DNA of 64,000 nucleotides from an uncultured candidate division Zixibacteria bacterium (GCA_963735035.1 CAVTJJ010000004.1:928001-992000), one strand, 5' to 3'; shown: positions 26,562-60,885, counted from the stretch's first letter. Numbers and translations are program-made. The notes: generated by a model not told the origin, from the sequence alone.

Positions 26562-26619
26562 GCATGTCTCTTGACTGAAGTTGAGCTGGTGAAATCGCTG
26601 ATTTCGCCGGCCATGAATA

Positions 26620-26654
26620 AGCGGCCATCCCAACTGGGATGGCCGCTTTCTTTT
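26620..26654 (+). terminator. Intrinsic terminator after paralog 3
   Basis: AGCGGCCATCCC-AACT-GGGATGGCCGCT-TTCTTTT. Confidence 0.85.
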
Positions 26655-26740
26655 CTTGCAAGCCTCGTGCGGTTTCACAAGAAGGTCTCCCAAATTGGGG
26701 CTTGAGTATCCCCGGTGGGTCTGTTACCTTCCCTGCCCAC

Positions 26741-27646
26741 ATGACCGAGTCCGGAACATATCTAGGTGAAGCGCTGGCCCTGATAACGGCTGTGGTCTGG
26801 GCGCTAGCTGTAGTTTTCTTCAAGAAGAGCGGCGAGCAGGTACATCCGGTCGGTTTGAACGTGTTCAAGAACCTGCTCGCGGCTGTTCTTCTCATTCCGA
26901 CCGCCTGGCTGTTCGGTGAAACGCTGCTTCGTCCGGTACCGGCCAGCGAATATATGCTGCTGCTGCTCAGTGGCGCACTTGGAATAGGCATCTCCGATAC
27001 CCTGTTCTTCATAAGTCTGAACACCCTGGGGGCAGGACTTTCGGCAATTGTCGACTGCCTCTACAGTCCTTTCGTTATCCTGTTTTCGATCATTCTCCTC
27101 GATGAACGGCTGACCCCGTGGCAGATCGTGGGCGTCGTCATGATTCTTTCGGCGGTGCTGTCAATTCTGGTGGAACGGCACGACGCCAACGTTCCCCGTC
27201 GAAGGATATTCCTCGGCATTCTCTGGGGAGCTCTGGCTATGGTGACCACCGCTCTGGGGATCGTGATTATCAAGCCGCTGTTGACCCGATCACCTTTGCT
27301 GTGGGCCACCGAAGTCCGCATGGTCGGAGGGTTGATAGTCCTCGCCCTTGTCCTGGCGGTTCTTCCGTACCGACGCCAGGTGCTCAAGTCGATTCTGTCT
27401 CGACGGAGGTGGCAGTTCACGGTCACCGGATCCCTGCTGGGAGCCTACGTCGCCATGATCCTCTGGTTGGCGGGAATGAAATTCACACAGGCGGCGACCG
27501 CGGCGGCGTTGAACCAGACCAGTAATGTCTTCGTTTTCATATTTGCCGCCCTGGTTCTAAAAGAGAAGATCACCAAAGTTAGAATGATCGCCATTTCGCT
27601 GGGCATAGCCGGAGCCTACCTGGTTACTTTCGGCGGTCCGTTCTGA
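26741..27646 (+). CDS. DMT/EamA-family transporter
   Basis: About 10 hydrophobic helices, GE.LAL.TA..WA start, two EamA halves (L.E.L, LKEKI). Start placed at MTESG, after TTGAGT-17-TACCTT (26702-26730). Confidence 0.88.
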   Translation: MTESGTYLGEALALITAVVWALAVVFFKKSGEQVHPVGLNVFKNLLAAVLLIPTAWLFGETLLRPVPASEYMLLLLSGALGIGISDTLFFISLNTLGAGLSAIVDCLYSPFVILFSIILLDERLTPWQIVGVVMILSAVLSILVERHDANVPRRRIFLGILWGALAMVTTALGIVIIKPLLTRSPLLWATEVRMVGGLIVLALVLAVLPYRRQVLKSILSRRRWQFTVTGSLLGAYVAMILWLAGMKFTQAATAAALNQTSNVFVFIFAALVLKEKITKVRMIAISLGIAGAYLVTFGGPF

Positions 27647-27731
27647 GGCCTGGGACATCCCTGTTGACTTGCCGGCGCGGGCCACGTTTCTTTACCAGGA
27701 TTGTTAATTCAAACCGATAGGATACTGCTAC

Positions 27732-29196
27732 ATGTCAGATGTTGTTCCCGATCCGCTGGCGTCGCCGAGCGAGGGGCTGTGGGGTCAACTCCAATCCATG
27801 AGTCGGCCGTTCTGGATGGTCAACATCATGGAGATGTTGGAACGCCTGGCCTACTACGGCGTCCGAGTCGTCATCCCGATCTACATCGCTCAGGCTGACG
27901 AAATCAACGGTTTGCATTTCTCCCAGGCCGACAAAGGGACCATCTTCTTCTGGTGGGCCATCTTTCAGTCGTTGACGCCGATGCTGTCAGGTGGCTTCGC
28001 CGACCGTTACGGCTATAAACGAACCATTGCGACATCGATCTTCATCAAGATGCTCGGCTACATTTTGATGGCGACTCAGCGCGAGTTCTGGCCGTTCCTG
28101 ATCGGCTGTTGTGTTCTGGCGCTCGGTACCGCAATCTTCAAGCCGGGAGTACAGGGGACCATGTGCCAGTCTCTGACCAAGAAGAACTCATCGGTCGGTT
28201 GGGGCACGTTCTATATGGTGGTAAATATCGGCGGTTTCCTTGGCCCGCCGCTGGCGCATTACCTGTATGGCTTCTCGTGGCCGACAGTATTCTACGGTTG
28301 TGCCGGGATCGTATCGCTCAACTTCCTGATGCTGCTGACCTATAAGGATCCTTCCACAGGTGGCGTCCAGAAGGGCGATCCATTTCATGTCTTTTGGATC
28401 ACACTGAAGGAATTTTTCAATCTCCGCCTGATCATCTTCATTGTCATCATGTCGGGCTTCTGGCTGATGTTCATGCAGCTCTTTGACCTGCTGCCGAATT
28501 TTATCGTCGATTGGGTCAATAGCTCGCGGGTTGTGAGTGACCTTGGGATTCCGGACTGGATGCTCCAGCTCAATTCGCCCCGAGCGCCTCAGATTTCACA
28601 GGAGTGGATGATCAATATCAACTCCGGTCTGATCGTTTGTGCGGTTGTGCTGGTCTCATTCATGGTTTCCCGGATGCGGCGCGTGATGTCGATCTTCATG
28701 GGCATTACGGTGTCTTCGGTCGGTCTGGCGCTGGCGGGGTTCTCGACTTCGGGGTATCTGTGTCTGGGCGGCATCATGTTCTTTTCGATCGGCGAAATGC
28801 TGGCTTCGCCCAAGATGAGTGAGTATCTCGGAGTTATTGCACCGGAAGGGAAGAAGGGGCTGTACATGGGATACGCCAACATCCCCAACGGGATCGGCTG
28901 GGCGCTCGGTTCGATCTATGCCGGTAATGTGTACGAGGAGTTCGGCGAGAAAGCGAGCCTGGCGGTCAAGTATCTGGATGCGAACTATCATATGGCCGGA
29001 GTGGATCGTACCGTCGCGATGAACAAGCTCATGGAAGTGACCGGCCTGAACGCCCAGCAGGCGACCGATCTGCTTGTGGAATACTTATCATCCCTACGAG
29101 CTATGGTATCGTTTCGCGGCAATTGGCATAGCCGCGGCCGTGGGGATATTCTTCTACGCGCGATGGGTGCGCAAGTTCGAAGCGGCCGACGTATAG
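27732..29196 (+). CDS. MFS transporter (POT/peptide-transporter-like) with an apparent +1 frameshift near 29074
   Basis: EMLERLAYYG motif, GGFADRYGYKR, FYMVVNIGG, GEMLASP. The last helix LWNTYHPYELWYRFAAIGIAAAVGIFFYARW...DV* lies in the +1 frame and ends at TAG 29194-29196. Confidence 0.85.
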
Positions 29197-29220
29197 ACAG
29201 TCATTCGAATTAGATGCCGT

Positions 29221-29266
29221 AGAGCCGAGCGTCGCCCGAAAGTGGCGGCGCTCGGTTTCTGTTTCT
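29221..29266 (+). terminator. Hairpin after the MFS gene, probable terminator
   Basis: AGAGCCGAGCGTCGCC-CGAAAGT-GGCGGCGCTCGGTTTCT followed by GTTTCT. Confidence 0.6.
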
Positions 29267-29289
29267 GTGCGGACCCCACCAGATAACTC

Positions 29290-29319
29290 TTGACATTGCA
29301 CCTCCCACCTTGCCATACT
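29290..29319 (+). promoter_or_regulatory. Sigma70-type promoter
   Basis: TTGACA-18 nt-CATACT with an extended TG. Confidence 0.5.
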
Positions 29320-29562
29320 ACCTTTGAAAGCAGTATAGATTATCGCGGGAATGCGACCCTTTGAGGGGAATCGCCTGTGGAAACGCACAAATCCGGGACG
29401 GTACAAAAGACGAGCCTTGCTCTGAGGCCCGGTGTACAACCAATATATGGGAGGTATAATGAAAGATCGCAGCAAGATAGCTTTCGGCAATGCACTGAAA
29501 TGTGTGGGTAACGCGCACGGCAGGCCGATGGTAAACACAATTCTGGAGACGGGAGGTCAGAA

Positions 29563-30621
29563 GTGAGAAGATCCGTTATTGGTGTATTACTCACTTTTGT
29601 ATTCGCGGCGGCAACGACAGTCGCCTCAGGCTACGAAGTTACCAAAGTAATTGAGATCGGTCCGGCTGTGCCTCTCTTGACTGGGGGTGCGCTCAAGTGG
29701 AGCCCCGACGGTACCATGCTGGCGTATTTCGCGAACAACTACCTGATGGTCTCAGACACGCTGGGGAATAGCCGCCAGGTGGTTGGCACAGAAGGACTTA
29801 CTCCCATGCGCGCCGAATGGGCGTCAAACAATGAGTTTGCGGTGAATCTGGCGAATCGTGAGGACACCGACTCGATGCTGTATCGTCTTGTCGTATATGA
29901 CATCGTGAGTGGCTCTCAGAGGTTGGTGCGGGAATGTTGGAGGACACGATGGAGCCTGCTTCCTGGCCACAGCGGCTTTGATGGCCCCTATGTCACGATG
30001 GAGGGTAACGCCTATTATGAGGAAGTCGTGATTTCCGGACTTGAGGAAGGAGAACTCAAGGAGAAGCTCAAGAGCACGGTTGTTAACAAAACCAAGACTC
30101 CTTTGTCATCGGCCAAGGGGATCTCAGAGGTGCTGGCAAGTAATCACCTACAGGTCTGGGGGAAGGATGGCCTTTACTCTGTGAATTGGGCTGGCGCAGA
30201 TTCGACGCAGCTTTCTTCCGAGGACGCTAGCGGTGCGCTCAAGGTTGGTATCACAGCGTCACCAGACCGCACTTGGATCTTCAGACGCGGCCGCCTCATG
30301 AACAGAATTACGCACGATACAATTGATGTTAGACAATTTACAGGAAGTGTGCCGGCGGGCACCGATTTGTGTGGATACAGCCGGATAAGCTTCAATCCGC
30401 GTTCTGAAGAGATTCTCTTTCAGCACTATTGTGAAAGTGGAGATACTCTTGTGATCGACAGGATTGCCACTTTCGATTATTCCAGCAAAGTGTTTGCTTT
30501 GCTTGATACTCTGACAGGCATCGAAGGAGGTACGTCTCCGGTTTATGCACCGGATGGGCGGATGATTTCCTTCTGTGCCCGTGGCAAGGCTTATATCATC
30601 TGGCGTGGGGTGACGCCATGA
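29563..30621 (+). CDS. Secreted TolB-like/PD40 beta-propeller protein
   Basis: RBS GGGAGG and GTG start; signal peptide; WSPDG..LAY and [12 protein letters not shown] repeats. Confidence 0.7.
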
Positions 30622-33041
30622 AACAAATAGCAATATTTGGTGGCATATGTCTACTTATGCTATTCCTTGGCGTGTCTGAATCTCGTGGGGATTTTTCCGG
30701 GCCTTGGGTCATGTTTGATCCGGGACACGGAGGCGATGCTCCAGGGAGCCTCACGCCCATTGACAATTACTTCGAAAAACACATAAATCTCGAAGTGGCC
30801 GACTCTTTGATAGCGTGGCTAGATCGGTTTGGTTGGAAGGATACTTTGCACTATGTCTTCACGAGATACAGCGATTCCACGGTCTCGAATTCCGATAGGG
30901 CGGAGAGGGCGGATGACCTCGATGTTGGCAGGTTCGTTTCAATTCATCACAATTCTGCGGACACATGCCCACCAACTCAACGTACCGAAACGTTGTATTC
31001 AACACTCAGCAACTGTGACAACGGCTCCTATGCCGGTCATGTACGTGACACAAGCGAAACCTTAGCTCTAAAGCTCGGTTATCGTATCAGGGACGATGCC
31101 TTTAGATACCACCTTCATGATCCCACTAATACCGGTGCCGCGCACACTGTTCTCAGCAGGACCTTTATGGAATCGGCGATCACTGAAGCCTCCTATACCT
31201 GTGATGCTGAGGAAGCAGGCAAATTCCATAACAATTATGACCTGCACGTTGACAAAGAAGCCGTCGCAATCTATAATGGTTGGTACAGCACTCACATTGG
31301 GCAAGGCTTGGGAGTTGTTGAGTATGCGTATCTCGATCGCTTACCTATCGACTCCTTGGATTGCGATCAGCACGTGCAGATTACAATAGGAACTAATGGT
31401 GACCCCATTGATTTACGCCCCCCGTACGAAGGGTGCTGGGCTCAGGAAGAGAACATACGCCTCTTTGCATACCCGTTTGTCAAAGACGGATATCAGTACT
31501 ACTTTCATCATTGGGAATGGGTTGATTGGGAGACGCGGGATGTCTATGAGATCGCCAGCTACAATCCGTATGACTTCCTTGTGTTTCCGGATTGGAACAG
31601 CGTGCACTACTATCGTGCCGTATTCACCGGAGGTCGGTTTACAGGTCAGTTTGTCACCCCTTGGATTACTCCCACAGCGATTCAGAACAATAATCCATAT
31701 CTGATTCAGTGGAACATAGGAGAGGGCGTGCTAAACACCTGTTCCCTTTATGTTGATTTCAGTTCCAACGGCGGTTCGTCATGGTCCACAATACTGGGTC
31801 CCGTGCCCTACGACTATGGCTATGCGAGAAGCGCCCAATCCGTTGATGCTGCGAACCCCGAGGATAGGGCCGGAAGATACTTGTGGAATGTCCCTGCGAT
31901 CCAGTCTGACAATTGCTATCTGCGTATTCGGGCGAGTGACTACGTTGATAATCAGACAACATTCCAGTCAAACAAGTTTTCGATTGCGTCCTGCCTGCTG
32001 GCTACCGGCTGGCTTGGATGGACGAAGCTGGCCTCGCCGGCAAGAACTTACACATTTAGCGCAAACCCTGCACCGGGAATCCCTATCACAAGTCGCACGT
32101 TCATTTTTGGTGATGGTACTACTTTGAACTCGACTAGTAACCAGGTGAATCACACCTATGTCCATGGTGGGAGGTTTGAACCGTCCTTAACCATAACCAA
32201 CGGTTGCGGCACGTACACGTGTGAGTCAACGGATCTGCTCTATGTTGATTGTGGATATGTCACCCCGGACGCCGACGGTGACGGAGTTGCAAACGACTGT
32301 GACCGATGTCCCACGGTATCAGACCCCTTGCATCTCGATATCGACAATGATTATGTGGGCGACGTGTGCGACAATTGCCCTGCCTTGAGCAACTGGGATC
32401 AGCTCGACAGCGATGGTGACGGCAAAGGTGATGTCTGCGACAATTGCCCGACGGTTTCTAACAGCAGTCAGACTGATACTGACGGCGATGGTATCGGCGA
32501 CGCATGTGACAACTGTCCATCGGCCTATAATGCCAACCAACTGGATACGGACCATGACGGCAAAGGGAATTTGTGTGACAATTGCCCAACCGTTTACAAT
32601 CCGAACCAACTCGACAGCGACGGTGACGGCATAGGTGATGCCTGCGACAACTGTCCCACCGTGAGCAACGCCAATCAAGCAAACAGCGACGGCGATGCTC
32701 TTGGCAACGCCTGTGACAACTGCCCGCAGGACACGAACGCGAATCAGGCTGATTTCAATAGTGATGGTATCGGTGACGCCTGCTGCTGTGTCGGCAGGGT
32801 AGGCGATGTCAACGGGATTGGAGGAGATGAGCCGACAATAGGTGACGTGCAGCTACTGATAGATGTCCTATTCGTTAGTTATACTTGTGAGGGATTGATA
32901 GGCTGTTTCGCCGAGGCTGATATCAATCAATCCGGCGGTGCCTCACCGTCCTGCGTCGATCTTTCTATATCAGACATATCCGTTCTTATCGATTATGTCC
33001 TTATCACCGGGCCGTCAGCAATCCTGCCGAACTGTCAGTAA
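30618..33041 (+). CDS. Secreted N-acetylmuramoyl-L-alanine amidase (Amidase_3) with Ig/PKD, thrombospondin type-3 repeats and a dockerin-like tail
   Basis: DPGHGG, EKHINL, SIHHN and ITEA Zn/catalytic motifs; FGDG...HTY...G.F...LT PKD; about 8 DxDxDGxGDxCDNCP repeats; dockerin-like duplication; ATGA overlap with the upstream gene. Confidence 0.88.
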
Positions 33042-33253
33042 TCTCCTCTTGAACTCCCAGGGGGCCGGTTCTTCACCAGTCCCCTTCCCGTCGAATTCGG
33101 ACTTAATTAAGCCTGATTTTCTTCACGCTTAGTCAATGAACCCCTCCAAATCCGGCGATTTCTGCCGAAATAGTCCTTATCAGGCAGGCCTTGGCCTGGC
33201 CCGCGTGGCACGAGTGTATCAGCCCGGGTCGGCCCCTGCCGGGATGGCTCAAA

Positions 33254-34597
33254 ATGCGTCTGGACCAAATCATCATAAACCGCCGTCTCGCGACCGAGGA
33301 ACAGGTCTGCGAAGCTCTCGACTATCAAAAAGAGTACGGGGGCCGCCTGGAAACCCACTTGTTTCGGATGGGGTATGTCGACGAACCGGGGCTAGTCGAG
33401 GCTCTTGCCGAGCAGTTCGCTTGCCCGAAAGTGGTCCTCAAAGGTCTGGACGTTCCGCCCGAAGTGCTTCAAATGCTGCCTGCCGAGACCGCGTGGACCC
33501 GGCTGGCGTTGCCGTTTGCTTTTGATTCTTCAACCCAGACGCTCAAAATTGCCTGTGAAAGTTCCCGGCGTACCGGTTTGCAGGAAGACCTGGAAGCGGC
33601 TTGTCCCGGATCGAAAATCGAGCTGCATATCGCCCTGGGCGTGGTCCTGCAGATGGCCCTGGTGAAGTACTACCGGGAAGTCCCCAGGATAGTGGAAAAC
33701 GCACCGACAGATATTCCATCGGCGATGGATGCGGTCTCGGTGCCTATCGAATGGATGGTCTCCTATTCCGCCAAATGCGAAATCCTGGTGTACGAAGAAG
33801 AGGGGAGTGGCGCTCCGGCGATGGGCCCACTGCTGCGCCATCAGGGATTCATCGTTGGCATCGTGCACACGGCGGATGAACTTGCGACAGCGGTGCGAAA
33901 ATCCGAACCGGATGCTATTCTGTTCATCATGCCGGACGGACCGGAGAGTGTGGACAACCTTCTGGCGCAGTTATCCGACCGAGCCATCTCTATTCTGGAA
34001 TTCCCCAGCTATCTGGTAATTGCCTCCGTCGAAGATTCCGAAATTGGCGGACTTCTCCAACTCGGGTTCGAGGAAGTGATCCGCGTCCAGAACGTGCTCG
34101 ACCTGCTGATGATAAAGCTCAAGCGGCTGAAAGAACGCTTGGTCAGTCAGCGCAACCAGCGGCAGGAAATCCTTCAGGCTATGGGCACGCACGGCTCATT
34201 GCAAGACATGCACGTTGTTGATCTGCTTCAGGCCATGGGGACTATCGGCAAGACGGCCCGCATCAGCGTGACCGCTGTCGGCAAGCAGTTGACGATCTAT
34301 CTGGATCGCGGACGAATCATCTACGCCGACTGTGACGACGTTGCCGGACCGGAGGCGGTCTACGGAGCGATTGGCTGGAATCAAGGCGTCTGGAATGTCG
34401 ATCCTATCCAGCCGGAAGAACTACCCGCACCGAACATCTTTATCTCCAGCGAAGGAATCCTGCTTGAAGGGTGCCGTCGCATGGATGAAAAGACGCGCCC
34501 AGACGGTGTTAAATCCCAGGACGATTCCGGAGCCTTGCTCCTATTCGAAGCCCTCGATCGCGCTTCAAATCACGCACCTGACGCACTACCTGAATAG
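33254..34597 (+). CDS. MshEN/T2SSE_N, degenerate receiver and DUF4388 (PATAN-like) domain protein
   Basis: MRLDQII...EALDYQ...GRLETHL...LVEALAEQ; REC-like ILVYEEE...PDAILF; HGSLQDMHVVDLLQ...IYLDRGRIIYA...GPEAVY...W..G...LLEG.R..DE. Confidence 0.8.
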   Translation: MRLDQIIINRRLATEEQVCEALDYQKEYGGRLETHLFRMGYVDEPGLVEALAEQFACPKVVLKGLDVPPEVLQMLPAETAWTRLALPFAFDSSTQTLKIACESSRRTGLQEDLEAACPGSKIELHIALGVVLQMALVKYYREVPRIVENAPTDIPSAMDAVSVPIEWMVSYSAKCEILVYEEEGSGAPAMGPLLRHQGFIVGIVHTADELATAVRKSEPDAILFIMPDGPESVDNLLAQLSDRAISILEFPSYLVIASVEDSEIGGLLQLGFEEVIRVQNVLDLLMIKLKRLKERLVSQRNQRQEILQAMGTHGSLQDMHVVDLLQAMGTIGKTARISVTAVGKQLTIYLDRGRIIYADCDDVAGPEAVYGAIGWNQGVWNVDPIQPEELPAPNIFISSEGILLEGCRRMDEKTRPDGVKSQDDSGALLLFEALDRASNHAPDALPE

Positions 34598-36257
34598 GGG
34601 AGGGTGCTGCCGATGAAAATCGGTAGCCTGCTGGTATTTCCACGCAACCGCCAGCAGAGTGCCTTCGTCGAATAATCTCCCGATAAATGTCAGACTGACT
34701 GGCGAACCCTCGGCATTGAATCCATTCGGCACCACTACACAGGGATGACCGGTCAGATTGGTCAGCAGCAGGTTGTCGCCTTCGAAAGCGGGTGCCAGGT
34801 ACAAATCGACGCTGTCCATAATCTCTCGCCATGTCAGCAATCACCATCGATCTCAGCCGATTGGCCTGGATGTACTCAACCGCCGGAATGAATCGGGCAC
34901 TACGAAATACATTGGGCCATGAATCACGGGTCTGACGAGTCATGAGGCTGTCCCGACCGGTGCGCGTGAGGTCGTCGAACGCGGCGGCCGCTTCCGCCGA
35001 CAGGATTATCGACATAGGGTAGATCGGCAAACTCGGCACTTGTATCTCTATCAGGTTCGCGCCCATCTTTCGAAGGCGATTCAGTGCAAACTGATTTTGC
35101 ACCGTCAGACTGGTGTCGTTATCAAAATCCGACTTGAGATAACCAATGCGGAGCTTCTTGAAGTCTGCTTTGGAATCATAGTTGAAGGGGAGACGCACGG
35201 TTGACGGATCCTGTGGATCGGGTCCGTAAATGGCGTTGAATACCAGCGCACAATCTTCGACGGTTCGGCAGATCGGGCCAAGTTTGTCCATGGACCAGCT
35301 CAGGGCCATCGCTCCGGCACGACTGACTCGGCCGAAAGTCGGACGGAGGCCCGTGACGCCGCAGCGTGTGGACGGTGAGACTATCGATCCCCAGGTTTCC
35401 GAGCCAATGGAGAACGGCAAGAGCCCGGCAGATACCGCCGACGCCGGTCCGGCCGATGAACCGCTCGAGCCTTCTTCCAGATTCCATGGGTTACGCGTCG
35501 TATCACCGTACCAAACATCCCCCCAGGCCAGTTCACCCAGCGACAGCTTGGCTACAAGAACCGCGCCCGCATCCTGCAAGCGGGTAATTACGGCGGCATC
35601 CTTGTCGAATGTCTGATTCTTGTATGGTGTCGATCCCCAGGTGGTAGGGTATCCCTTGACAGCTAATAGGTCCTTCGCTCCATACGGAATCCCGTGGAGC
35701 GGTCCGCGATAGTTGCCGGCCGCAATTTCGCTGTCGGCCTTTGCCGCCTGACGCAAGGCCAGGTCTTCAGTCAGTGTGATTACACAATGAAGCTGGCCGT
35801 CAAACTTCTTGAGACGCTCCAGTGCCAAATTGGTAAGCTGCATCGAGGTCACCTGGCGCGTGCGGATCAATTCAGATAGCTCGCGCACCGTGAAGTAGGC
35901 GAGGTCTCCCAGGTTGGCAGGAAGTTTCACGTCCGGCGCGGGACCGAACTGAACCGGGCGCTGGACCGTATCAAATACGGTTCCAGGTGGAATCGGATCG
36001 AATACCAGGGCGGGCGCAACAGAATTGGCGATGCTTACCTGTCGCATCGAAGTATAGCAAGACAGGTTGTCTTCCAAGTCAGGCAGGAGGGAGTCTCGCT
36101 CGGAAGGGGTCAGTTTGATCCCGATCAGTTTCTCCGCGTCGGCTACGTTTCGATTTTCGATTTTGACGCTGTCGGAATCCGCACCGAGAATTGTTTCTCC
36201 CAATCCGATCACTAATCCGACAGTAACAATTATGCTGAGATTCTTGAGTAGACCCAT
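34586..36257 (-). CDS. Secreted amidase-signature family amidase with an apparent +1 frameshift near 34826
   Basis: GPLHGIPYGAKD, GSSGSSAGPA, GSETWGSIVSP motifs. The conserved-looking end (IMDSVDLYLAP...NLTGHP.VVVP...LFDEG.LLA...YQ.AT.FH..HP) is in another frame and ends at 34586. Confidence 0.88.
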
Positions 36258-53946: not shown

Positions 53947-54230
53947 ATCCTGAGAGGTCTCAGGTCAAAATGTATGCCAGTAAACGGACTTCCAGCGGGT
54001 CCGTGTATCTACGGGTATCATAACAGCTTACGGTGTGCAAGAGTTTCCCACGGGGATGCGCAGGAATGCAGCTTTGTGAAACGAGGCGGCAATTCTGCAA
54101 TCCGGAGCATACCCCTCCTCTTTTCCTGAAGGGGGTGCTGGCAGAGGCCGAGATTTGCACCTATATTGACCGCTTCTTTGGCTCCCCGGATTGGGCCAGG
54201 TTGAATGACAGGAAGCAGGCAAGCAGAAGC

Positions 54231-55181
54231 ATGAATTACAACGGAGAACTGGCCGCTCTTACCACTGCTGTGTGCTGGTCGGTGACCGCGATTTTCTTCG
54301 CCGAGGCTGGGCGGCGCATCGGCTCGTTTCGGGTTAATGCGATCCGGCTGCTCTTTGCGGTCGCAATCTACTCCGTAGTCCTGCTGCTGACTCGCGGCTA
54401 CCTGTTTCCCCCAGACTTGAACCGCATGCAGGTGTTCTACCTGGCGCTCTCCGGGCTGGTGGGACTGGTTATTGGCGACGGTGCCGGGTTCAAGGCGCTA
54501 GTGATGATTGGTCCGCGACTCAGCACGCTACTGGCAGTGACAGCCCCTGTCATGGCCACGGTCATTGCGTGGATATTTCTCGGTGAACGCCTCCAGATTG
54601 TCGATCTGTTTGGGATTGCGGTAACTATCGGTGGGGTGGGATGGGTGGTGGCCGAACGGCGCTACCAGAACCACAACCATTTTCAACTTCACGCCGACCA
54701 TCCCGACTCCGGCACTCTCGGCCGGGGGGTTCTGCTTGCGCTGGTAGCTGCCCTGGGTCAGGCCGCGGGACTGGTCTTGTCCAAACAGGCGATGCTCAAC
54801 TGCGGGTCGCCGCTCGATCCCCTTCCGGCGTCGTTTCTGCGGATGCTTACATCGGCCGTCATGATCTGGCTGTTTGCCGGCCTGCGGGGACGCCTGATCG
54901 ACACGCTCAAGGGATTTCAGCACCGCACCGGGATTCTATGTGCGGTCGGGGGCGCCATATTTGGTCCTTTCCTGGGGGTGTGGATGTCGCTCGTAGCCGT
55001 GGCGCGCATTCCCGCCGGTATTGCCGCGACCCTCAACGCCACGACCCCGGTCTGGATCATTCCGAACGTGATGTACTTCTACAAAGAAAAAATCTCGCTT
55101 CGCGCCGTTGTGGGTGCTATACTGGCCGTGGGTGGCATAGCTATCTTGTTCATGGCCGATGAAATATTTGGAGTATTCTAG
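54231..55181 (+). CDS. DMT/EamA-family transporter
   Basis: MNYNGELAALTTAVCWS start; LSG..GL.IGD, FLGE and KEKIS motifs; distant paralog of 26741-27646. Confidence 0.88.
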   Translation: MNYNGELAALTTAVCWSVTAIFFAEAGRRIGSFRVNAIRLLFAVAIYSVVLLLTRGYLFPPDLNRMQVFYLALSGLVGLVIGDGAGFKALVMIGPRLSTLLAVTAPVMATVIAWIFLGERLQIVDLFGIAVTIGGVGWVVAERRYQNHNHFQLHADHPDSGTLGRGVLLALVAALGQAAGLVLSKQAMLNCGSPLDPLPASFLRMLTSAVMIWLFAGLRGRLIDTLKGFQHRTGILCAVGGAIFGPFLGVWMSLVAVARIPAGIAATLNATTPVWIIPNVMYFYKEKISLRAVVGAILAVGGIAILFMADEIFGVF

Positions 55182-56115
55182 ACTACGCGCTTTTGTGGCC
55201 AGGTATTTCGCCTGTTCCAATCCGGACCGGCGGGTTGGCCGCTTAGGTATATTCGACTCGGATTATATCGATATCTTCCGCTTCTTTGGTCCGGAGGGAA
55301 TGCGACCATCCGATGTACGCGTCTTCTACCTCGACGAACCCTTTCAAATTCAGGACCCGCTCATTCGCGAATTCGCCCTGACTACGGCGCAACAAATGCG
55401 CGCCGAGGGTCGTATCTACGACGGTGGCCCGGTCATGAAACTGGCGTCGTGCACACTCGGGGCCGGTGAACCGCATATCACGGTGCAGCCGTGCGATTAT
55501 TCGTTGCAGGCCGGAACTTGCTTTGCCCTGGACCTGCCAGACGCCCGCTTTGAATCGGTGGGTGGGACGTTACGCGACTACTATCGCCGGGGGTGTATCG
55601 TCCCGACATTCGAGAACAATCCGCTGGCGATTTGCCTGGGCGTGAGCGGCATGCTGATGGTCGAAGAAGGTAGCGAGAGGTTCATCCTGCGGGCCGAAAG
55701 GGCATCGCACCTGGCGTCCCTGGAGGAGTCGAGCGGGCCGTCGGTAGCGGGTGTAGTCGATTACATTACAGGTCACCCAAATCTGGCGGAGTTGATTGTT
55801 GCGGCTATGAGCAACGAAATCCAGGAAGAGCTAGGCCTGCTTCACGGTGAATACGAAATCATCCCCCTGGCCTGGGCCACTGAGCTGTTTCGTGGCGAGC
55901 GACCGCAAATATTCTGTCTGATACGCACATTGCTTGAACGCGACGGAGTGATGGCGCGTCTCAATGCAGTCCCGAAGGAACGTCGCGAATTCGAAAGTGT
56001 CCGCTTCATGCCTTTGTATGGCGGAACCATGCTCGACCAGAAGGACCTTGATACGTTGAACTTCGAAGCGAAGATGAATTTCTATCTGGCCGAAGAGTAT
56101 CTTGGTTTGGGATAA
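55159..56115 (+). CDS. Hypothetical protein with a degenerate Nudix-like fold
   Basis: LGVSG.L....FIL..R......SVAGVVD...AMSNEIQEELGL resembles a Nudix box; overlaps the DMT stop. Confidence 0.55.
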   Translation: MKYLEYSRLRAFVARYFACSNPDRRVGRLGIFDSDYIDIFRFFGPEGMRPSDVRVFYLDEPFQIQDPLIREFALTTAQQMRAEGRIYDGGPVMKLASCTLGAGEPHITVQPCDYSLQAGTCFALDLPDARFESVGGTLRDYYRRGCIVPTFENNPLAICLGVSGMLMVEEGSERFILRAERASHLASLEESSGPSVAGVVDYITGHPNLAELIVAAMSNEIQEELGLLHGEYEIIPLAWATELFRGERPQIFCLIRTLLERDGVMARLNAVPKERREFESVRFMPLYGGTMLDQKDLDTLNFEAKMNFYLAEEYLGLG

Positions 56116-56147
56116 GGTTTTGTTCTGGAATAAGGTTTTGTTTTGAT

Positions 56148-56316
56148 CGGCAGGGCTCAGCCCCTGCCGCTTGGGTGGCTAACTACCGTGCCCGGCAGAT
56201 GTCCACATCTGCCGGCTGACAGAGTGCCTGGTGGCCCACCTGCTTGCAGGTGGGGGATAGACAGAAGCGACGGAAAGAATGTCGAAACCGTCCGAAGCGG
56301 CCTGGTTTCGACCTAC
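56148..56316. repeat. Cluster of four REP-like hairpins
   Basis: CGGCAGGG/CCCTGCCG; CCGGCAGATGT/ACATCTGCCGG; GTGG-CCCACCTGC-TT-GCAGGTGGG; GTCGAAACC/GGTTTCGAC-CTAC. Confidence 0.75.
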
Positions 56317-56340
56317 AAGACAGTGGCACAGAAAGTACAT

Positions 56341-56871
56341 ATGATAGACTCTTGTCAACAACGTCTGATGCGCTTTGAAAAGAAGAGAGATTGGAAGAAC
56401 GCCGCTGCCGCGAACAGAACCTTCATTGCTCAGTATCCTGAAAGCCACTGGTTCCTAACAAAGCAGTCAGAGTACTACTACGAACTCAAGCAGTACGGAA
56501 GAGCACTGAAACACGCGCGGAAGGCGTTGCAGTTGGCCCCCCATTGCCCGCTGGTTCTCTGGGATTATGCTGGAGCCTTGCATATGTTGGATCAGACAGA
56601 GCAGGCCAGGCTTGTTTACAGGAGGCTGCTACGCAGAGGTGTTGAACACATTGCATATGGTCAGTGTGGTGAAGGATATAGATGGGCGGAGAACCTTCTT
56701 TGCGATTGCCTCTACAAGATCGGAACGGGGTACGCTGATGAGGGTAAGACGAGACTGGCAATCCGATACCTGCGCCGTCACCTTGTCTCTAGGAGACCGG
56801 GACTTCGCAGCCTGTTTCCGGCGAAGAATGTGCGTCGGAAGTTGGCTGATCTTGAGAAGAAGACGGAGTAG
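56341..56871 (+). CDS. Tetratricopeptide repeat protein
   Basis: YYELKQYGRALKHARKALQLAP...YAGALHMLDQ...A..VY TPR pattern; start at ATG 56341 (or 56368). Confidence 0.75.
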   Translation: MIDSCQQRLMRFEKKRDWKNAAAANRTFIAQYPESHWFLTKQSEYYYELKQYGRALKHARKALQLAPHCPLVLWDYAGALHMLDQTEQARLVYRRLLRRGVEHIAYGQCGEGYRWAENLLCDCLYKIGTGYADEGKTRLAIRYLRRHLVSRRPGLRSLFPAKNVRRKLADLEKKTE

Positions 56872-56877
56872 TTTCCG

Positions 56878-56946
56878 CCTGCTTGCAGGTGGGGGATAGA
56901 TGCATCATATGAGAATGTAACCACCCACAGCAAGCTGTGGGGTACC
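56878..56946. repeat. Two adjacent repeat units: a 23-bp copy of 56239-56261 and a 36-bp copy of 60392-60427
   Basis: CCTGCTTGCAGGTGGGGGATAGA (56878-56900) and GAGAATGTAACCACCCACAGCAAGCTGTGGGGTACC (56911-56946). Confidence 0.85.
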
Positions 56947-56975
56947 AAGCTATTTGATGAACAAACAGAGAGATT

Positions 56976-57818
56976 ATGAGCGAATCAAAAAGTAACATAA
57001 CATCAATCAAGACAGTCGGGACCTTTATCAAAGTTGGGGCATGTTCGAGTACGCTATGCAACGTCCTCAACCGCGCCTATGAACAGCCTTTGATCAACGA
57101 GGAAAGCGCCGCCATTCCTCTCGCGGGCGGTCTAATGCAGCATGGTTACCAGTGCGGCATGATCTGGGGCTCGACCCTCGCCGCCGGGGCGCAGGCATAT
57201 CGACTTCATGGCGCGGGGCCGAAGGCCGAAACCAGGGCTATTGTCGCGGCCCAAAGGGTGGTGGCATCTTTCCGTACTCTCAATAACTGCATTGACTGCT
57301 TCGATATTACCGAAATGAACGAGACTTCAACTGGATGGCAGTTGACGAAGCACTTTCTGCTAAAAGGCGGCACTATACATTGCTTCAGCATGGCCTCAAA
57401 ATATGCCCCGGTGGTATTCAATGAGATCAACGCCGCGCTCTCCGAGAACCATATCGATACATTCTCCGCGCCCGTGAGTTGTGCGGCGGTGTTGGCTCAG
57501 AAGATGGGCGCGTCCGACATGCACACAGTCATGGCGTCGGGACTTGCGGGCGGTATTGGGTTGAGTGGCGGCGGCTGTGGGGCGTTGGGGGCGGCCTTAT
57601 GGATCACCGGTTTGAACAGCCTCAAGGCGGGCAATAAGAAGATCGATTACAAAGCCCCCGAGAACTTTGCGCTGATCGACAAATTCCTGAAATGCACGAA
57701 CTACGAATTCACGTGCTCCAAGATAGTCGGGCGGAAGTTCGAGAGTGTCGGTGACCACGCCGCTTATGTGTGCAACGGCGGCTGCTCGAAGATCATTGAG
57801 GTGTTAGCGGCGAAGTGA
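56976..57818 (+). CDS. C-GCAxxG-C-C family putative redox protein with a tandem duplicated domain
   Basis: CSST...LAGG....QCGMIWG...C.DI...C and CAAV...LAGGIG.SG..CGALG...CSKI...C. Confidence 0.85.
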   Translation: MSESKSNITSIKTVGTFIKVGACSSTLCNVLNRAYEQPLINEESAAIPLAGGLMQHGYQCGMIWGSTLAAGAQAYRLHGAGPKAETRAIVAAQRVVASFRTLNNCIDCFDITEMNETSTGWQLTKHFLLKGGTIHCFSMASKYAPVVFNEINAALSENHIDTFSAPVSCAAVLAQKMGASDMHTVMASGLAGGIGLSGGGCGALGAALWITGLNSLKAGNKKIDYKAPENFALIDKFLKCTNYEFTCSKIVGRKFESVGDHAAYVCNGGCSKIIEVLAAK

Positions 57819-57881
57819 TGGGAAAGATGATCGGGTAGGTGGCCCACCTAGCCATAAAGAGCAGAAGGCTAAACGTTATAC

Positions 57882-58307
57882 ATGGTTGACGAGCCATACA
57901 CAAATCGACAGCGAGAAGATATTGACGTATTGAAGCGCTCGCAGCGAAGACTCGCGGAAGCAAGTTCGTTGTTGTTGCGTTATGTGCCCACGCTCTTCTG
58001 GCTGTTTCTTAGAACACGAGTGATGCCGCTTCCATCAATTCTTGAACCGTTGCTCAATACGATGCTTTGCAGCTACATAATCTTTGCGCTCGGATTCGGA
58101 CTGATGTTCGTTTTCTTCGTGATGCAGTTAACCATTAGACTGCATAGGTTCTATATCTGGCAGAAATATGGTTCAAATGAGCTTCCGCCGTATCCAGTTG
58201 TCGACCCTGGGTACAGACAGTACTTTCGTTATGTCTTGAGAATCACCGTCGTTGTAGAAGTAATTGTGGACTCGTTCTTCGTTGTGGATCTATTTACCAC
58301 GACGTAG
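57882..58307 (+). CDS. Hypothetical membrane protein
   Basis: 141 aa with 2-3 hydrophobic segments; AT-richer codon usage. Confidence 0.55.
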   Translation: MVDEPYTNRQREDIDVLKRSQRRLAEASSLLLRYVPTLFWLFLRTRVMPLPSILEPLLNTMLCSYIIFALGFGLMFVFFVMQLTIRLHRFYIWQKYGSNELPPYPVVDPGYRQYFRYVLRITVVVEVIVDSFFVVDLFTTT

Positions 58308-58323
58308 ATTACGCGCTGTCACC

Positions 58324-58349
58324 GGGTAGCCCACAGCTCTGCTGTGGGT
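58324..58349. repeat. REP-like hairpin (GTAG-footed CCCAC...GTGGG family)
   Basis: GGGTAG-CCCACAGC-TCT-GCTGTGGGT, an inverted relative of the 36-bp repeat. Confidence 0.75.
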
Positions 58350-58371
58350 AAGATCGCCATGAGGCCGAGCT

Positions 58372-58830
58372 ATGATATTCAACGATTCGCTGTTGGTATT
58401 CGAAAACGAGATTCGTGAAAGAAGCCGCTGGCAGGCGTTTCTAGAAGTTCTCAAAAAGTACACGTTCGATCTGAGACCGATTCATCGATATCGCGGTCGC
58501 GTGACACTGATTGGTGATGTTCTCGGAATCGACATGCACCACGTCCACACCTCGGTCCCGCTCGTAATGAATATCCCTCTGCTGAGCATCGTTGGTCTGG
58601 ACATAGGGTACAACGACGTTCTTACCTCCCTCACGGTCCCCCGGTGGCACTGGCGGCTCGGACCCATTGGTGTGCGTTATGAAGACGAAAACGGAAAGGA
58701 TACCACGATCTACCTATTTGCAGCCTACGATCACGGATGGACTGTGAATCCGAATTGCAGGAATGACGATCTGTTCAAGGCTATGAGTAGCCGTATTATG
58801 GAGTTGAAGGCAAAGAAGAATCAGCCATGA
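58372..58830 (+). CDS. Hypothetical protein
   Basis: 152-aa ORF that looks beta-rich; GAGG RBS. Confidence 0.6.
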   Translation: MIFNDSLLVFENEIRERSRWQAFLEVLKKYTFDLRPIHRYRGRVTLIGDVLGIDMHHVHTSVPLVMNIPLLSIVGLDIGYNDVLTSLTVPRWHWRLGPIGVRYEDENGKDTTIYLFAAYDHGWTVNPNCRNDDLFKAMSSRIMELKAKKNQP

Positions 58831-58859
58831 GCTACCCAGATCGTCTAAGTAGCGTCATC

Positions 58860-58963
58860 GTCGGGTTGCTCGTGTCTCGCTTCGCGAGACCCTCGTGAAC
58901 CCGACCTACATGAACCTACGGCCAGTATGAATGGCAGAACCACCAAGGGGTTCTGCCCTACGA
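58860..58963. repeat. REP-like hairpins ending in CTAC
   Basis: GTCGGGTT...AACCCGAC-CTAC and GGCAGAACC...GGTTCTGCC-CTAC. Confidence 0.65.
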
Positions 58964-59092
58964 ACCTGCGACGATTTGTTTAATCCCACCCGCAAGTAAC
59001 TATGATACTGTTCGTGATTTGAGCCTCTGTTCGGACAAGGTATCGTATCGTGGTCTGAAGACAACGATAGATCCTTAGAACAGGAGGCTCAG

Positions 59093-60151
59093 ATGAGAAG
59101 GTACGAAGTTGGAGCGGAAGTGGGAAGTGCTGTTTTTGTTGGCGTGGATGTTCACAAGCGTCAGTGGTTTGTCACGGTGAGGACGTTAGAAGTGGAACTG
59201 TTCTGTGGCAGCATTAACGGGGATTGGGCGTCTTTGCGGTGTTTGCTGGATCGGTATGATCCTGGGTGTGTGTCCGTGGTTTACGAGGCGGGTTTTTCTG
59301 GTTTTTGGCTGCACGACTGTGTGGTAGCGTGGGGTGGTCAGTGCGTAGTAACGCCGCCGAGCTTGGTGCCGATGGCCTACGGTAATCGGGTGAAGACGGA
59401 CAAGCGGGATAGCCGGAAGCTGGCCTGGTTGCTGTCGTTAGGGTTGTTGAAGAAGGTCTGGGTTCCGGATGAGAGTCAGCGGGGTCACCGAGAGGTCTTA
59501 CGTCGTCGTCGTCAATTGGTTCAAGATCGGGTACGTCTTCAGAGTCGGATCAAATCGGAGTTGGCCTTATATGGTATTTCAGTGTGCAGTGGGACGGGTC
59601 GGTGGACCGGTCCGTTATTAGAGCGTCTGAGACAGGTGTGTTTGGCAGATGTCTGGGCTCAGGCGAGCTACGAGCGGTTGTTGGAGATGTACGATCTGGT
59701 AAGTAACCAGCTGGCGTTGCAGACACGACTGTTGCGGGAGTTGTCACGACTGCCACAGTATCGTGATCGAGTTCGGCTGTTAAGTAGCGTTCCCGGCATA
59801 GGGGTTATTACGGCGATGGCTCTGCTGTTGGAATTGCATGAGGTCGGTCGTTTTGGACGGGCTGAGCAATTGGCGGCTTATGTGGGACTGACACCTTCGC
59901 AGTATTCCAGCGGTGATCATGTCCGGATGGGTCGGATTACCGGCACGGGCAACAGCTATCTTCGGGGCTTGTTAGTGGAATCGTCCTGGATTGCCGTTCG
60001 GAAGGACCCACACTTACAACTGGTCTATAACCGGATCAAGCAACGTGCCGGCGGCAAACGAGCCATAGTGGCGGTAGCTCGACGACTGGTCTTGGCAGTC
60101 AGGCGGGTTCTGCTTGATAACGTTGCCTATGAGCCGTGTGCGGCCGCCTAA
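59093..60151 (+). CDS. IS110-family DEDD recombinase/transposase
   Basis: VGVDVHK, YEAG, KTDKRD (DEDD); SVPGIG..TA, YVGLTP.QYSSG (catalytic Ser), GRIT..GN..LR..L.E, A.VAVAR.L. Confidence 0.96.
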   Translation: MRRYEVGAEVGSAVFVGVDVHKRQWFVTVRTLEVELFCGSINGDWASLRCLLDRYDPGCVSVVYEAGFSGFWLHDCVVAWGGQCVVTPPSLVPMAYGNRVKTDKRDSRKLAWLLSLGLLKKVWVPDESQRGHREVLRRRRQLVQDRVRLQSRIKSELALYGISVCSGTGRWTGPLLERLRQVCLADVWAQASYERLLEMYDLVSNQLALQTRLLRELSRLPQYRDRVRLLSSVPGIGVITAMALLLELHEVGRFGRAEQLAAYVGLTPSQYSSGDHVRMGRITGTGNSYLRGLLVESSWIAVRKDPHLQLVYNRIKQRAGGKRAIVAVARRLVLAVRRVLLDNVAYEPCAAA

Positions 60152-60154
60152 GAT

Positions 60155-60345
60155 AACCAAGGAGTCGGAACCGTACCAAGCTAACGCGAGAACAGCGACC
60201 CACCCGCTGTGGCTCGGGCCAACCGAGACCACGTCCGCAAGTCTGCTGCCTCGCCAGGTCACGAGCGGATACATTGCCTGTGGCGCTGCCAGTCAGCGAC
60301 CACGAATAGCAGACTGGTTCGAGTCCTATGCCTGAACAGAAAGCC
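60155..60345 (+). ncRNA. Candidate bridge/seek RNA in the right non-coding end of the IS110 element
   Basis: About 200 nt of non-coding sequence with several hairpins (ACAGCG/CGCTGT, CTCGG/CCGAG, GTCTGCT/AGCAGAC) and short matches to both target flanks. Confidence 0.5.
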
Positions 60346-60391
60346 CTTGACACAGTACATAGCAGCGGGTGGGCCACCCCACGTCGTTTCA

Positions 60392-60427
60392 GAGAATGTA
60401 ACAACCCACAGCAAGCTGTGGGGTACC
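60392..60427. repeat. 36-bp direct repeat containing a REP-like hairpin
   Basis: GAGAATGTAACAACCCACAGCAAGCTGTGGGGTACC, 35/36 identical to 56911-56946. Confidence 0.88.
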
Positions 60428-60525
60428 CGATCCCTGCAGTCAATTTCTGTCACAAACGCAACCGCCGGGACCTTCAAAGAACCCGGCGGCGTAATTGTGT
60501 ATCGTCCGACTTGAGTGAATAGTCG

Positions 60526-60885
60526 TTACTGATCCAAACCGTCTACATCCGTATCAGGACGTGACCGCTCACTGGCAAACTCGCTGATCTCCTCCGGATC
60601 CTTGTCTTTTAGTTTCCCCTTGAACTTCTTCAACTGCACGATGATCTTCTCGGACGCCCCCGTCATCGCGGTGATCATGTCGTTGGTCTCGGCCTTCGCC
60701 GAAAGCATGTGAGCATGCACCTTCACCCGCAATTCGGCGGTGCGACGGTGCCGTTCGGCGTCGAGCACGTACTCGGCCGAAATTATCCGGTCAAAGAAGC
60801 GAGTCAGGCCGTCCATCTCCTCTTCCGCCTTGGCTCTGATTTCCGGCGTAAGGTCGAAATGACGAGCGGTTACTTTCTTCTGCAT
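60526..60885 (-). CDS. hpf: Ribosome hibernation factor HPF/RaiA (short form)
   Basis: MQKKVTARHFDLTP.IR....L.RFFD.I...AE......L.AKA...DM..A.....K...QL.K.K.K; RBS GAAAGGA; lies downstream of rpoN. Confidence 0.9.
   Translation of the reverse strand: MQKKVTARHFDLTPEIRAKAEEEMDGLTRFFDRIISAEYVLDAERHRRTAELRVKVHAHMLSAKAETNDMITAMTGASEKIIVQLKKFKGKLKDKDPEEISEFASERSRPDTDVDGLDQ

Follow-up and report, generated by a model that had tools for sequence, protein, structure and literature searches.

Within a 64,000-nt window (C4:928001-992000, C4 being one of the 6 contigs of a 3.61-Mb assembly) of the genome of an uncultured Zixibacteria bacterium, we examined a block of ~4.35 kb at positions 56116-60461, in window coordinates, which are used below unless a contig is named. 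The block comprises four small + strand genes and one IS110-family gene, with CCCAC-stem-GTGGG hairpins in the spacers. An earlier note on this DNA had likened it to an integron array in which gene units are captured at repetitive extragenic palindromes (REPs) by a REP-associated tyrosine transposase (RAYT) or an IS110 enzyme acting in trans. Our analysis makes it fairly probable that the block is instead an ordinary, lineage-specific accessory islet, colonised by REPs and situated at a hot spot for gene gain, with no capture machine involved. Five observations support this reading: a REP family of established copy number, the presence of RAYT genes, the target of the insertion sequence (IS), the empty ancestral site and the distribution of the accessory genes. 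On present evidence, the integron-like reading is not supported, and the idea of a new gene-capture machine does not hold.

An insertion into a convergent gap

The region 56116-60528 is sandwiched between two conserved gene groups. On the left, an EamA transporter gene (54033-55181, + strand) directly precedes a 318-aa conserved gene without a Pfam family (55159-56115, + strand), which forms the left border of the islet. On the right, on the − strand, lies hpf-glpX-rpoN-lptB, whose first gene, hpf (60526-60885), encodes the ribosome hibernation factor. A terminator-like hairpin, an inverted repeat located immediately 3' of hpf (60462-60489, − strand), marks the right edge of the inserted block.

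Among the 80 Zixibacteria rpoN loci that we compared, hpf is present at 72, the 318-aa gene at 13 and the EamA gene at 16; since the loci end at 6 kb or at contig ends, the counts of absence set lower bounds on presence. Wherever the 318-aa and EamA genes are present at rpoN loci, they are convergent with hpf. At 8 of the 80 loci, no more than 43-120 nt separate hpf from the 318-aa gene, a gap with at most one terminator-like hairpin, and no REP or repeat-array hairpin was found in these eight empty gaps. The empty gaps therefore point to EamA > 318-aa gene > < hpf as the ancestral arrangement, and the 4.35-kb block, as judged from this comparison, is an insertion into a convergent terminator gap. 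Elsewhere, the same gap is filled with a ~145-163-aa open reading frame (ORF) without a Pfam family, with a 3.7-kb insert carrying an LpoB-like gene, or with a 2.2-kb insert carrying PhzF and HD-domain genes. Given that the inserts differ in other lineages, gene gain at the gap is independent of the REPs described here. An assignment of the ~156-aa gene that follows hpf in six relatives as ptsN was dropped for want of a Pfam match.

Two further genomes of the genus, G001 and G002, belong to other species and allow comparison at the species level. In G002, hpf abuts the gene of window position 33191, and the 23-kb segment 33191-56115 is inverted relative to the source genome; G001 has different neighbours at both borders. 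As a cause of the G002 inversion, an inverted REP pair at its far end was considered and rejected, since no recurring hairpin occurs at 26000-35500. At the rearranged G002 junction, the 318-aa gene is followed by a 1239-aa relative of three tandem ~1235-aa genes that lie elsewhere in the window (14064-17771, 18472-22182 and 22866-26558) and have no Pfam family. A first search of genome contigs with the 318-aa protein returned no match, and a metagenome scan with the same protein returned two short contigs that end inside the gene and are uninformative for the junction.

The gap thus emerges from these comparisons as a recurrently used hot spot for gene gain and rearrangement. Of the gene-capture hotspot proposed earlier, the hot spot stands, the gap being empty or differently filled in relatives, whereas integron-like capture finds no support.

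Accessory genes of the islet

As the earlier note described, four small unrelated + strand genes and an IS lie between housekeeping-type genes. In order, they encode a 176-aa tetratricopeptide repeat (TPR) protein (56341-56871; TPR_19 and other matches), a 280-aa putative redox protein of the C_GCAxxG_C_C family in its Cys form (56976-57818; hereafter the GCAxxG gene), a 141-aa hydrophobic, putative membrane protein without known relatives (57882-58307) and a 152-aa protein to which no function was assigned (58372-58830). The window has 44 crude ORFs, 38 of which were put through a family scan.

All four genes are accessory, being either patchy or orphan in their distribution. In a survey of 150 other genomes of the order, homologues of the GCAxxG gene were found in 13 and matches to the TPR gene in 9 (at most 47% identity; 6 of them at E 1e-30 or better; none in the genus), while the 141-aa and 152-aa ORFs were found in none. 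The 141-aa protein has no other cluster among 5.8 billion, and a metagenome scan yielded 198 pattern matches for it, none of which was confirmed. The 152-aa protein has three full-length metagenome homologues, with 79, 69 and 51% identity. G001 and G002 lack all four genes, and the source genome itself has no paralogue of any of them. Five proteins were scanned with PADLOC, the 318-aa one of the flank and the four encoded in the islet, and none was recognised as a known defence protein.

At 6 of the 7 homologous GCAxxG loci examined, a TGA codon in frame stands in the alignment opposite Cys23 of the islet protein (motif G-A-C-S-S-T-L-C). This looks like a selenocysteine/cysteine pair, which would fit the NCBIfam name 'C-GCAxxG-C-C family (seleno)protein'.

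A genome-wide REP family

The CCCAC hairpin is an ordinary genome-wide REP family, probably of the RAYT type. CCCAC..GTGGG pairs occur 211 times in the genome; motif frequencies predict ~54, and the reversed arrangement occurs 67 times. Short G+C-rich palindromes of this kind with a stem of at least 6 and a GGTRS foot amount to 154 copies, 132 of which fall within junctions between crude genes. A one-sided foot, GGT[AG][CGA], was assigned in 116 of the 154 (62 on the + and 54 on the − strand), leaving 38 unassigned. The subfamilies differ little in sequence; the CCCACAGC(AA/TT)GCTGTGGG subfamily by itself contributes 40 copies here and 24 and 8 copies in two same-genus genomes; its exact 18-mer was found in 16 of the 30 relatives searched, with zero occurrences of a control pattern. 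By the terms of the earlier note, its proposal would fall if the repeats, flanks included, were simply high-copy across the genome and gene content did not vary at their boundaries. This is largely what we find, with hairpin plus foot in 154 copies. Moreover, flank sequence is often shared as well: 58 of the 154 copies have at least 12 nt in common with another copy and 31 at least 20 nt, the partner often being distant.

CCCAC REPs occupy 111 of the 2912 junctions of the genome, and any recurring perfect hairpin occupies 361 (the genome has 1520 perfect hairpins with a stem of at least 8, of which 799 belong to recurring families). Three junctions with CCCAC REPs are reached in 30 of 2876 sliding windows, and four in 6. 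Bracketing of genes by such repeats is no peculiarity of the islet. There are 24 direct pairs of the same sequence within 8 kb, 16 of which bracket a crude ORF, and 6 of these 16 share flanks to an extent equal to or above that of the 36-nt repeat of the islet. Genome-wide, where two neighbouring REPs enclose one or more genes, the pair is direct in 12 cases, inverted in 22 and unoriented in 22 (binomial p 0.12), so that the bracketing emphasised in the earlier note shows no bias towards direct orientation. Of the oriented neighbour pairs without a gene between them, most (13 of 17) are direct.

At the islet itself, full CCCAC hairpins were located at 56235-56254, with the foot GGTGG; at 56924-56941, where the foot is 3' of the hairpin; at 58330-58348, with the foot GGTAG; and at 60405-60422. 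The previously reported 23-nt exact direct repeat is confirmed and lengthens to 26 nt with 1 mismatch (56236-56261 and 56875-56900), enclosing the TPR gene. Its first copy is part of a + strand REP with a GGTGG foot and a GGATAGA tail (56230-56261), a 32-mer that recurs identically at C6:587674-587705; its second copy (56875-56900, + strand) is a 5'-truncated, footless REP with a mutated 5' stem. Equally confirmed is the 36-nt direct repeat with 1 mismatch, which includes a non-palindromic flank and encloses the next three genes plus the IS. Both copies are on the − strand and end in the foot GTACC on the 3' side: the first (56911-56946) consists of a 13-nt flank, the REP CCCACAGCAAGCTGTGGG and the foot, and the second (60392-60427) contains the REP at 60405-60422. 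The hairpin at 58330-58348 is part of the + strand REP at 58325-58348, with a GGTAG foot (CCCACAGCTCTGCTGTGGG).

Where the earlier note had a single hairpin family at almost every junction, a CCCAC REP is present at 5 of the 6 junctions, and it is not the only family. REPs of at least four other families, without assigned strand, also occur at junction 1 (three REPs) and junction 5 (two REPs). Junction 1 holds a REP of the CGGCAGGG...CCCTGCCG family (56148-56169), one of the largest family, CCGGCAGATGTCCACATCTGCCGG (56192-56215), and one of the GTCGAAACC...GGTTTCGAC family (56279-56318), a 40-nt identical copy of which lies at C4:1183930, among others. Junction 5 holds a 50-nt REP-like repeat of a further family (58860-58909; copies at C3:861213, C4:194884, C4:834819 and others) and a REP of the GGCAGAACC...GGTTCTGCC family (58933-58957). 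The remaining junction, junction 3 (57816-57881), matches only itself in the genome, and the hairpin at 57833-57853, which had been taken for a partial copy, is therefore not a family member but a unique short palindrome outside any repeat family.

RAYT genes and the IS110-family element

The genome encodes six RAYT candidates, located in trans to the islet, as the proposal of the earlier note would require. All six score 94-134 bits on NF047646 (cut-off 80) and exceed the PF01797 cut-off, and the H-x-H and Y-I-H-x-N-P-V motifs are visible in their translations; on these signatures they qualify as REP-associated tyrosine transposases of the Y1 HUH type. Five of the six have copies of their own REP family, inverted with respect to each other, within tens of bases on either side. 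Three families found at junction 1 are represented in this way: CGGCAGGG...CCCTGCCG in the flanks of the RAYT at C3:433722, CCGGCAGATGTCCACATCTGCCGG at C4:1466560 and GTCGAAACC...GGTTTCGAC at C6:22298. The RAYT-flanking family closest to CCCAC is a CCCAG sister family, and GGTGC-CCCAGCGCTTGCGCTGGG, whose foot and loop are those of the CCCACCGC subfamily, flanks the RAYT at C3:165005-165541. At C3:433400-434830, a RAYT gene lies within an array of at least 13 alternating REPs of two related types, CGGCAGGG.. and CGGCAGGC...

The IS110-family element (58997-60365, 1369 nt, + strand) carries a transposase gene at 59093-60151, the product of which matches PF01548 (DEDD, 1.4e-12), PF02371 (Transposase_20, 2.4e-25) and NF033542 (226.7 bits, cut-off 140). 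The element splits a REP into CCCACCCGCAAG | CGGGTGGGCCACC, the left half lying at 58985-58996 and the right half with its foot, CGGGTGGG CCACC, at 60366-60378, both on the − strand. All five full copies in the genome are identical and are located between CCCACCCGCAAG and CGGGTGGGCCACC, with no target duplication seen; the earlier statement that the IS targets a REP thus holds for every copy, at the same position of one REP sequence. No unoccupied exact 20-mer target is left in the source genome, and one uninterrupted target occurs in G002.

The non-coding region 3' of the transposase gene, which at 214 nt exceeds the 96 nt found 5' of it, matches the target REP over CCCACCCGCT (10 nt) and CCGCAAG (7 nt). 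An RNA from this region probably guides the element, although Rfam gave no family match for the non-coding region and one chance-level match overall. The putative guide fits only its own REP variant, CCCACCCGCAAGCGGGTGGG, which is distinct from the variants CCCACAGC and CCCACCTGC. Both an IS110 copy and a REP whose flanks are identical are common to the end of contig C3 (C3:988289-989187) and the start of contig C4 (C4:3370-4900), and the assembly probably breaks or overlaps at this IS110 element.

Other REP clusters and sequencing runs

Clusters of at least three CCCAC REPs within 4.5 kb number 18 in the genome, partly overlapping. Four look-alike clusters were picked by hand and searched as DNA in G001 and G002, a search that can miss diverged genes. 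At all four the flanks matched, and the REP-dense stretch of small genes was unmatched or, in one case, partly matched. At one of these loci, G001 has a 274-nt REP-free site in place of 2.46 kb with 13 hairpins and two genes in the source genome.

Another of the four, locus L052, adjoins a tRNA-Ser(GCT) gene (C4:695903-695995) that is conserved in the genus; directly behind this gene come 5 kb with REP-punctuated small genes (PEGA, CZB and others). Same-genus genomes lack this run of small genes at the DNA level. It is a second islet of the same style.

No sequencing run covers half of the stretch; the best two share 0.15 (X1, soil) and 0.05 (X2, freshwater sediment) of it. X1 has just short identical pieces, from the left flank (55000-55409) and the IS, and X3 and X4 have just conserved glpX-side pieces. 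The contigs of X2 are ~90% alike to the source. One of them joins 58962 to 60384 with 12 other letters in between, and hence lacks the IS and its target REP; another lacks a REP and the 152-aa gene, as discussed below, and other X2 contigs do cover the 152-aa gene. These contigs hint at a piecemeal islet content in related populations, to which we attach little weight. Parts left uncovered in the runs, such as the TPR gene, prove nothing. The joints 56217>60403, 56217>58911 and 58963>58930 involve multi-copy repeat families and were set aside as other loci or assembly joins. Neither a circle-type joint nor an excision joint with both ends at REPs was seen in the run contigs, data too thin to establish absence.

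Origin of the islet

Under the reading we favour, that of an ordinary REP-colonised islet, accessory genes would have accumulated in the convergent, terminator-to-terminator gap between the EamA/318-aa pair and hpf-glpX-rpoN-lptB, where insertions would break no operon. The genes presumably came first and the REPs later, colonising the spacers. Several REP families may have been spread by the six RAYTs (Y1 HUH transposases), whose genes lie in other parts of the genome, and the IS110-family element would have homed, guided by RNA, into one REP variant. The 26-nt and 36-nt repeats would be copies of two REP subfamilies with a little flank in common, as is usual for many REPs of this genome, and not att or attC sites, and the REPs would act here only as selfish or terminator-like spacers.

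Several observations weigh against this account. By a strict count, 3 of the 7 junctions of the block carry a CCCAC REP, a high density that places it among the top 30 of 2876 sliding windows, and 7 of the 11 recurring hairpins of the window are concentrated in these 4.3 kb. CCCAC REPs flank none of the six RAYTs. The 26-nt repeat encloses exactly one gene, and its second copy is truncated within the stem in the manner of a recombination joint. The 13-nt non-palindromic flank of the 36-nt repeat has only two occurrences in the genome, both here, and the two copies therefore appear to have been made by local copying or recombination and not by two independent REP insertions. A Logan contig of X2 joins 58302 to 58860, omitting a REP and the 152-aa gene (depth 2.5, shorter side 51 letters), and its right joint falls at a REP edge. 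Finally, the closest genomes all belong to other species, and the comparison is one between species and not between strains.

Some of these points would be accommodated if recombination between REPs built and reshuffled the islet, the REPs serving as portable homology or as hot spots of illegitimate recombination with no dedicated enzyme, and the 26-nt and 36-nt repeats being joints of gains, losses, duplications and inversions. We regard this as unlikely, yet as an alternative that deserves to be weighed. It would explain why flank-sharing local repeats bracket one gene in one case and three genes plus the IS in the other, why the 13-nt flank is exclusive to its two copies and why the 58302>58860 joint has one end at a REP edge. 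It is also consistent with the G002 inversion, one break point of which lies at this junction, with the presence of the same REP families across the order and near both G002 break points, and with the coincidence of REP-dense stretches and non-conserved genes at the four other loci. However, repeats of 26-36 nt are short for RecA-dependent exchange, the empty sites of relatives are REP-free, and lineages that lack these REPs have inserts in the same gap. As for the four other clusters, they were chosen for their likeness, and the DNA search may have missed diverged genes; a correlation between REPs and accessory genes is in any case expected, because monocistronic accessory genes give more spacer for REPs.

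Less probable still, and in our estimate a long shot, is that accessory genes enter and leave such gaps as REP-bounded units, either through single-strand cut-and-join of the RAYT type on two REPs of one polarity or through exchange between REP copies that related genomes have in common. If this were true, the 26-nt and 36-nt repeats and the X2 contig without the REP-152-aa unit would be its traces, and REPs would constitute a diffuse, genome-wide analogue of attC sites.

We consider it very improbable that 56947-60427 is one integrated element whose attL and attR are the 36-nt repeats and whose recombinase was lost or acts in trans. The direct repeats with 1 mismatch and a non-palindromic flank would suit such an element, as would a dip in GC content to 0.47 at 57800-58400. 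Nevertheless, no integrase was found among the 38 of 44 window ORFs scanned, the repeat core is just a 40-copy REP, and the IS110 element has ends of its own (58997 and 60365) and no cargo common to its 5 copies. In X2, two pieces seem to be missing independently of each other, the IS together with its REP in one case and the 152-aa gene in the other, which argues for piecemeal content instead of a single element.

An integron-like platform, in which a RAYT, by cutting and joining single strands at the REP foot, or the IS110 recombinase would use REPs in trans like attC sites to insert or excise gene-plus-REP cassettes, might be suggested by the small, unrelated, co-oriented genes with REPs at 5 of the 6 junctions and by the presence of six predicted RAYTs and an active-looking IS110 element in the genome. 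Direct REP pairs, moreover, may have the geometry of IS200/IS605 ends. The absence of attC cores and an integrase noted earlier is upheld: RYYYAAC...GTTRRRY pairs at a spacing of 30-140 nt number 0 on both strands of 56100-60530, against 0.7 in shuffled sequences, and no recombinase family besides IS110 was detected among the 38 of 44 crude window ORFs, IntI not having been searched genome-wide. The notion of cassette units bounded by REPs has further points against it, namely the mixed polarity (CCCAC REPs read + + - + - - along the block), the uneven number of repeats (none at junction 57816-57881, two at junction 2), the REP-free empty sites and the intermixing of other families. With non-uniform polarity, not one REP per gene and a bare junction, with no excess of direct orientation among gene-bracketing pairs, with an IS110 target and matching non-coding sequence specific for another REP variant, with no RAYT linked to the CCCAC family, with no unit present twice in the genome and, on weak data, with no circles seen, such a platform is most improbable.

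Comparison with known systems

REPs and RAYTs are described in Pseudomonas (PMC3390384). The system reported here resembles the proteobacterial REPs, bacterial interspersed mosaic elements (BIMEs) and RAYTs ('REPtrons', TnpA-REP) in its G+C-rich extragenic palindromes with a conserved foot and tens to hundreds of copies, in the coexistence of several families per genome, and in RAYTs flanked by their own inverted REPs (5 of 6 here). It differs in its host, an uncultured member of the Zixibacteria whose 3.6 Mb encode six RAYTs. Strain-specific genes of the Pseudomonas fluorescens group are described as lying in 'REP deserts' (PMC3390384); here, conversely, REP-dense stretches coincide with genus-variable genes. 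Unlike REPIN-like inverted doublets, gene-free neighbour pairs are mostly direct in this genome.

REP-targeting IS110-family elements include ISPpu9, ISPpu10, ISPa11 and IS621, and bridge or seek RNAs are known for this group. That IS110-family elements target REPs is established (PMC1525189). The element of the islet is like them in its DEDD and Transposase_20 domains, in the fixed position within the REP and in a non-coding region that matches the target; it differs in that the long non-coding region is 3' of the gene and all exact targets are occupied.

In Vibrio cholerae, the repeats that proved to be attC sites had initially been regarded as a REP-like family. The islet shares with integron arrays the small, co-oriented, unrelated genes, the hairpin repeats between them and a content that varies among relatives. 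In contrast to such arrays, it has no integrase among the scanned window ORFs and no attC cores in 56100-60530, its repeats are of mixed polarity and do not come one per gene, and they are dispersed genome-wide.

A likeness may also be seen in Neisseria, which has mosaic elements (dRS3/RS repeats) in its intergenic regions and, in gaps that separate conserved genes, 'minimal mobile elements'. As in those mosaics, several small repeat families fill the spacers; as with the minimal mobile elements, a fixed gap holds different accessory genes in each lineage; and in both cases a small repeat is what an IS110/Piv-type recombinase targets. Here, however, the likeness is drawn from species-level relatives, and no uptake-sequence logic of natural transformation has been shown. 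Our results extend the themes of REPs with RAYTs and of REP-homing IS110 elements to the uncultured phylum Zixibacteria. They also offer a clear case of a single convergent gap, bounded by hpf and the 318-aa gene, which some lineages leave empty while others have it rearranged or filled in different ways, and with it a modest lead on whether REPs follow gene turnover or help to cause it.

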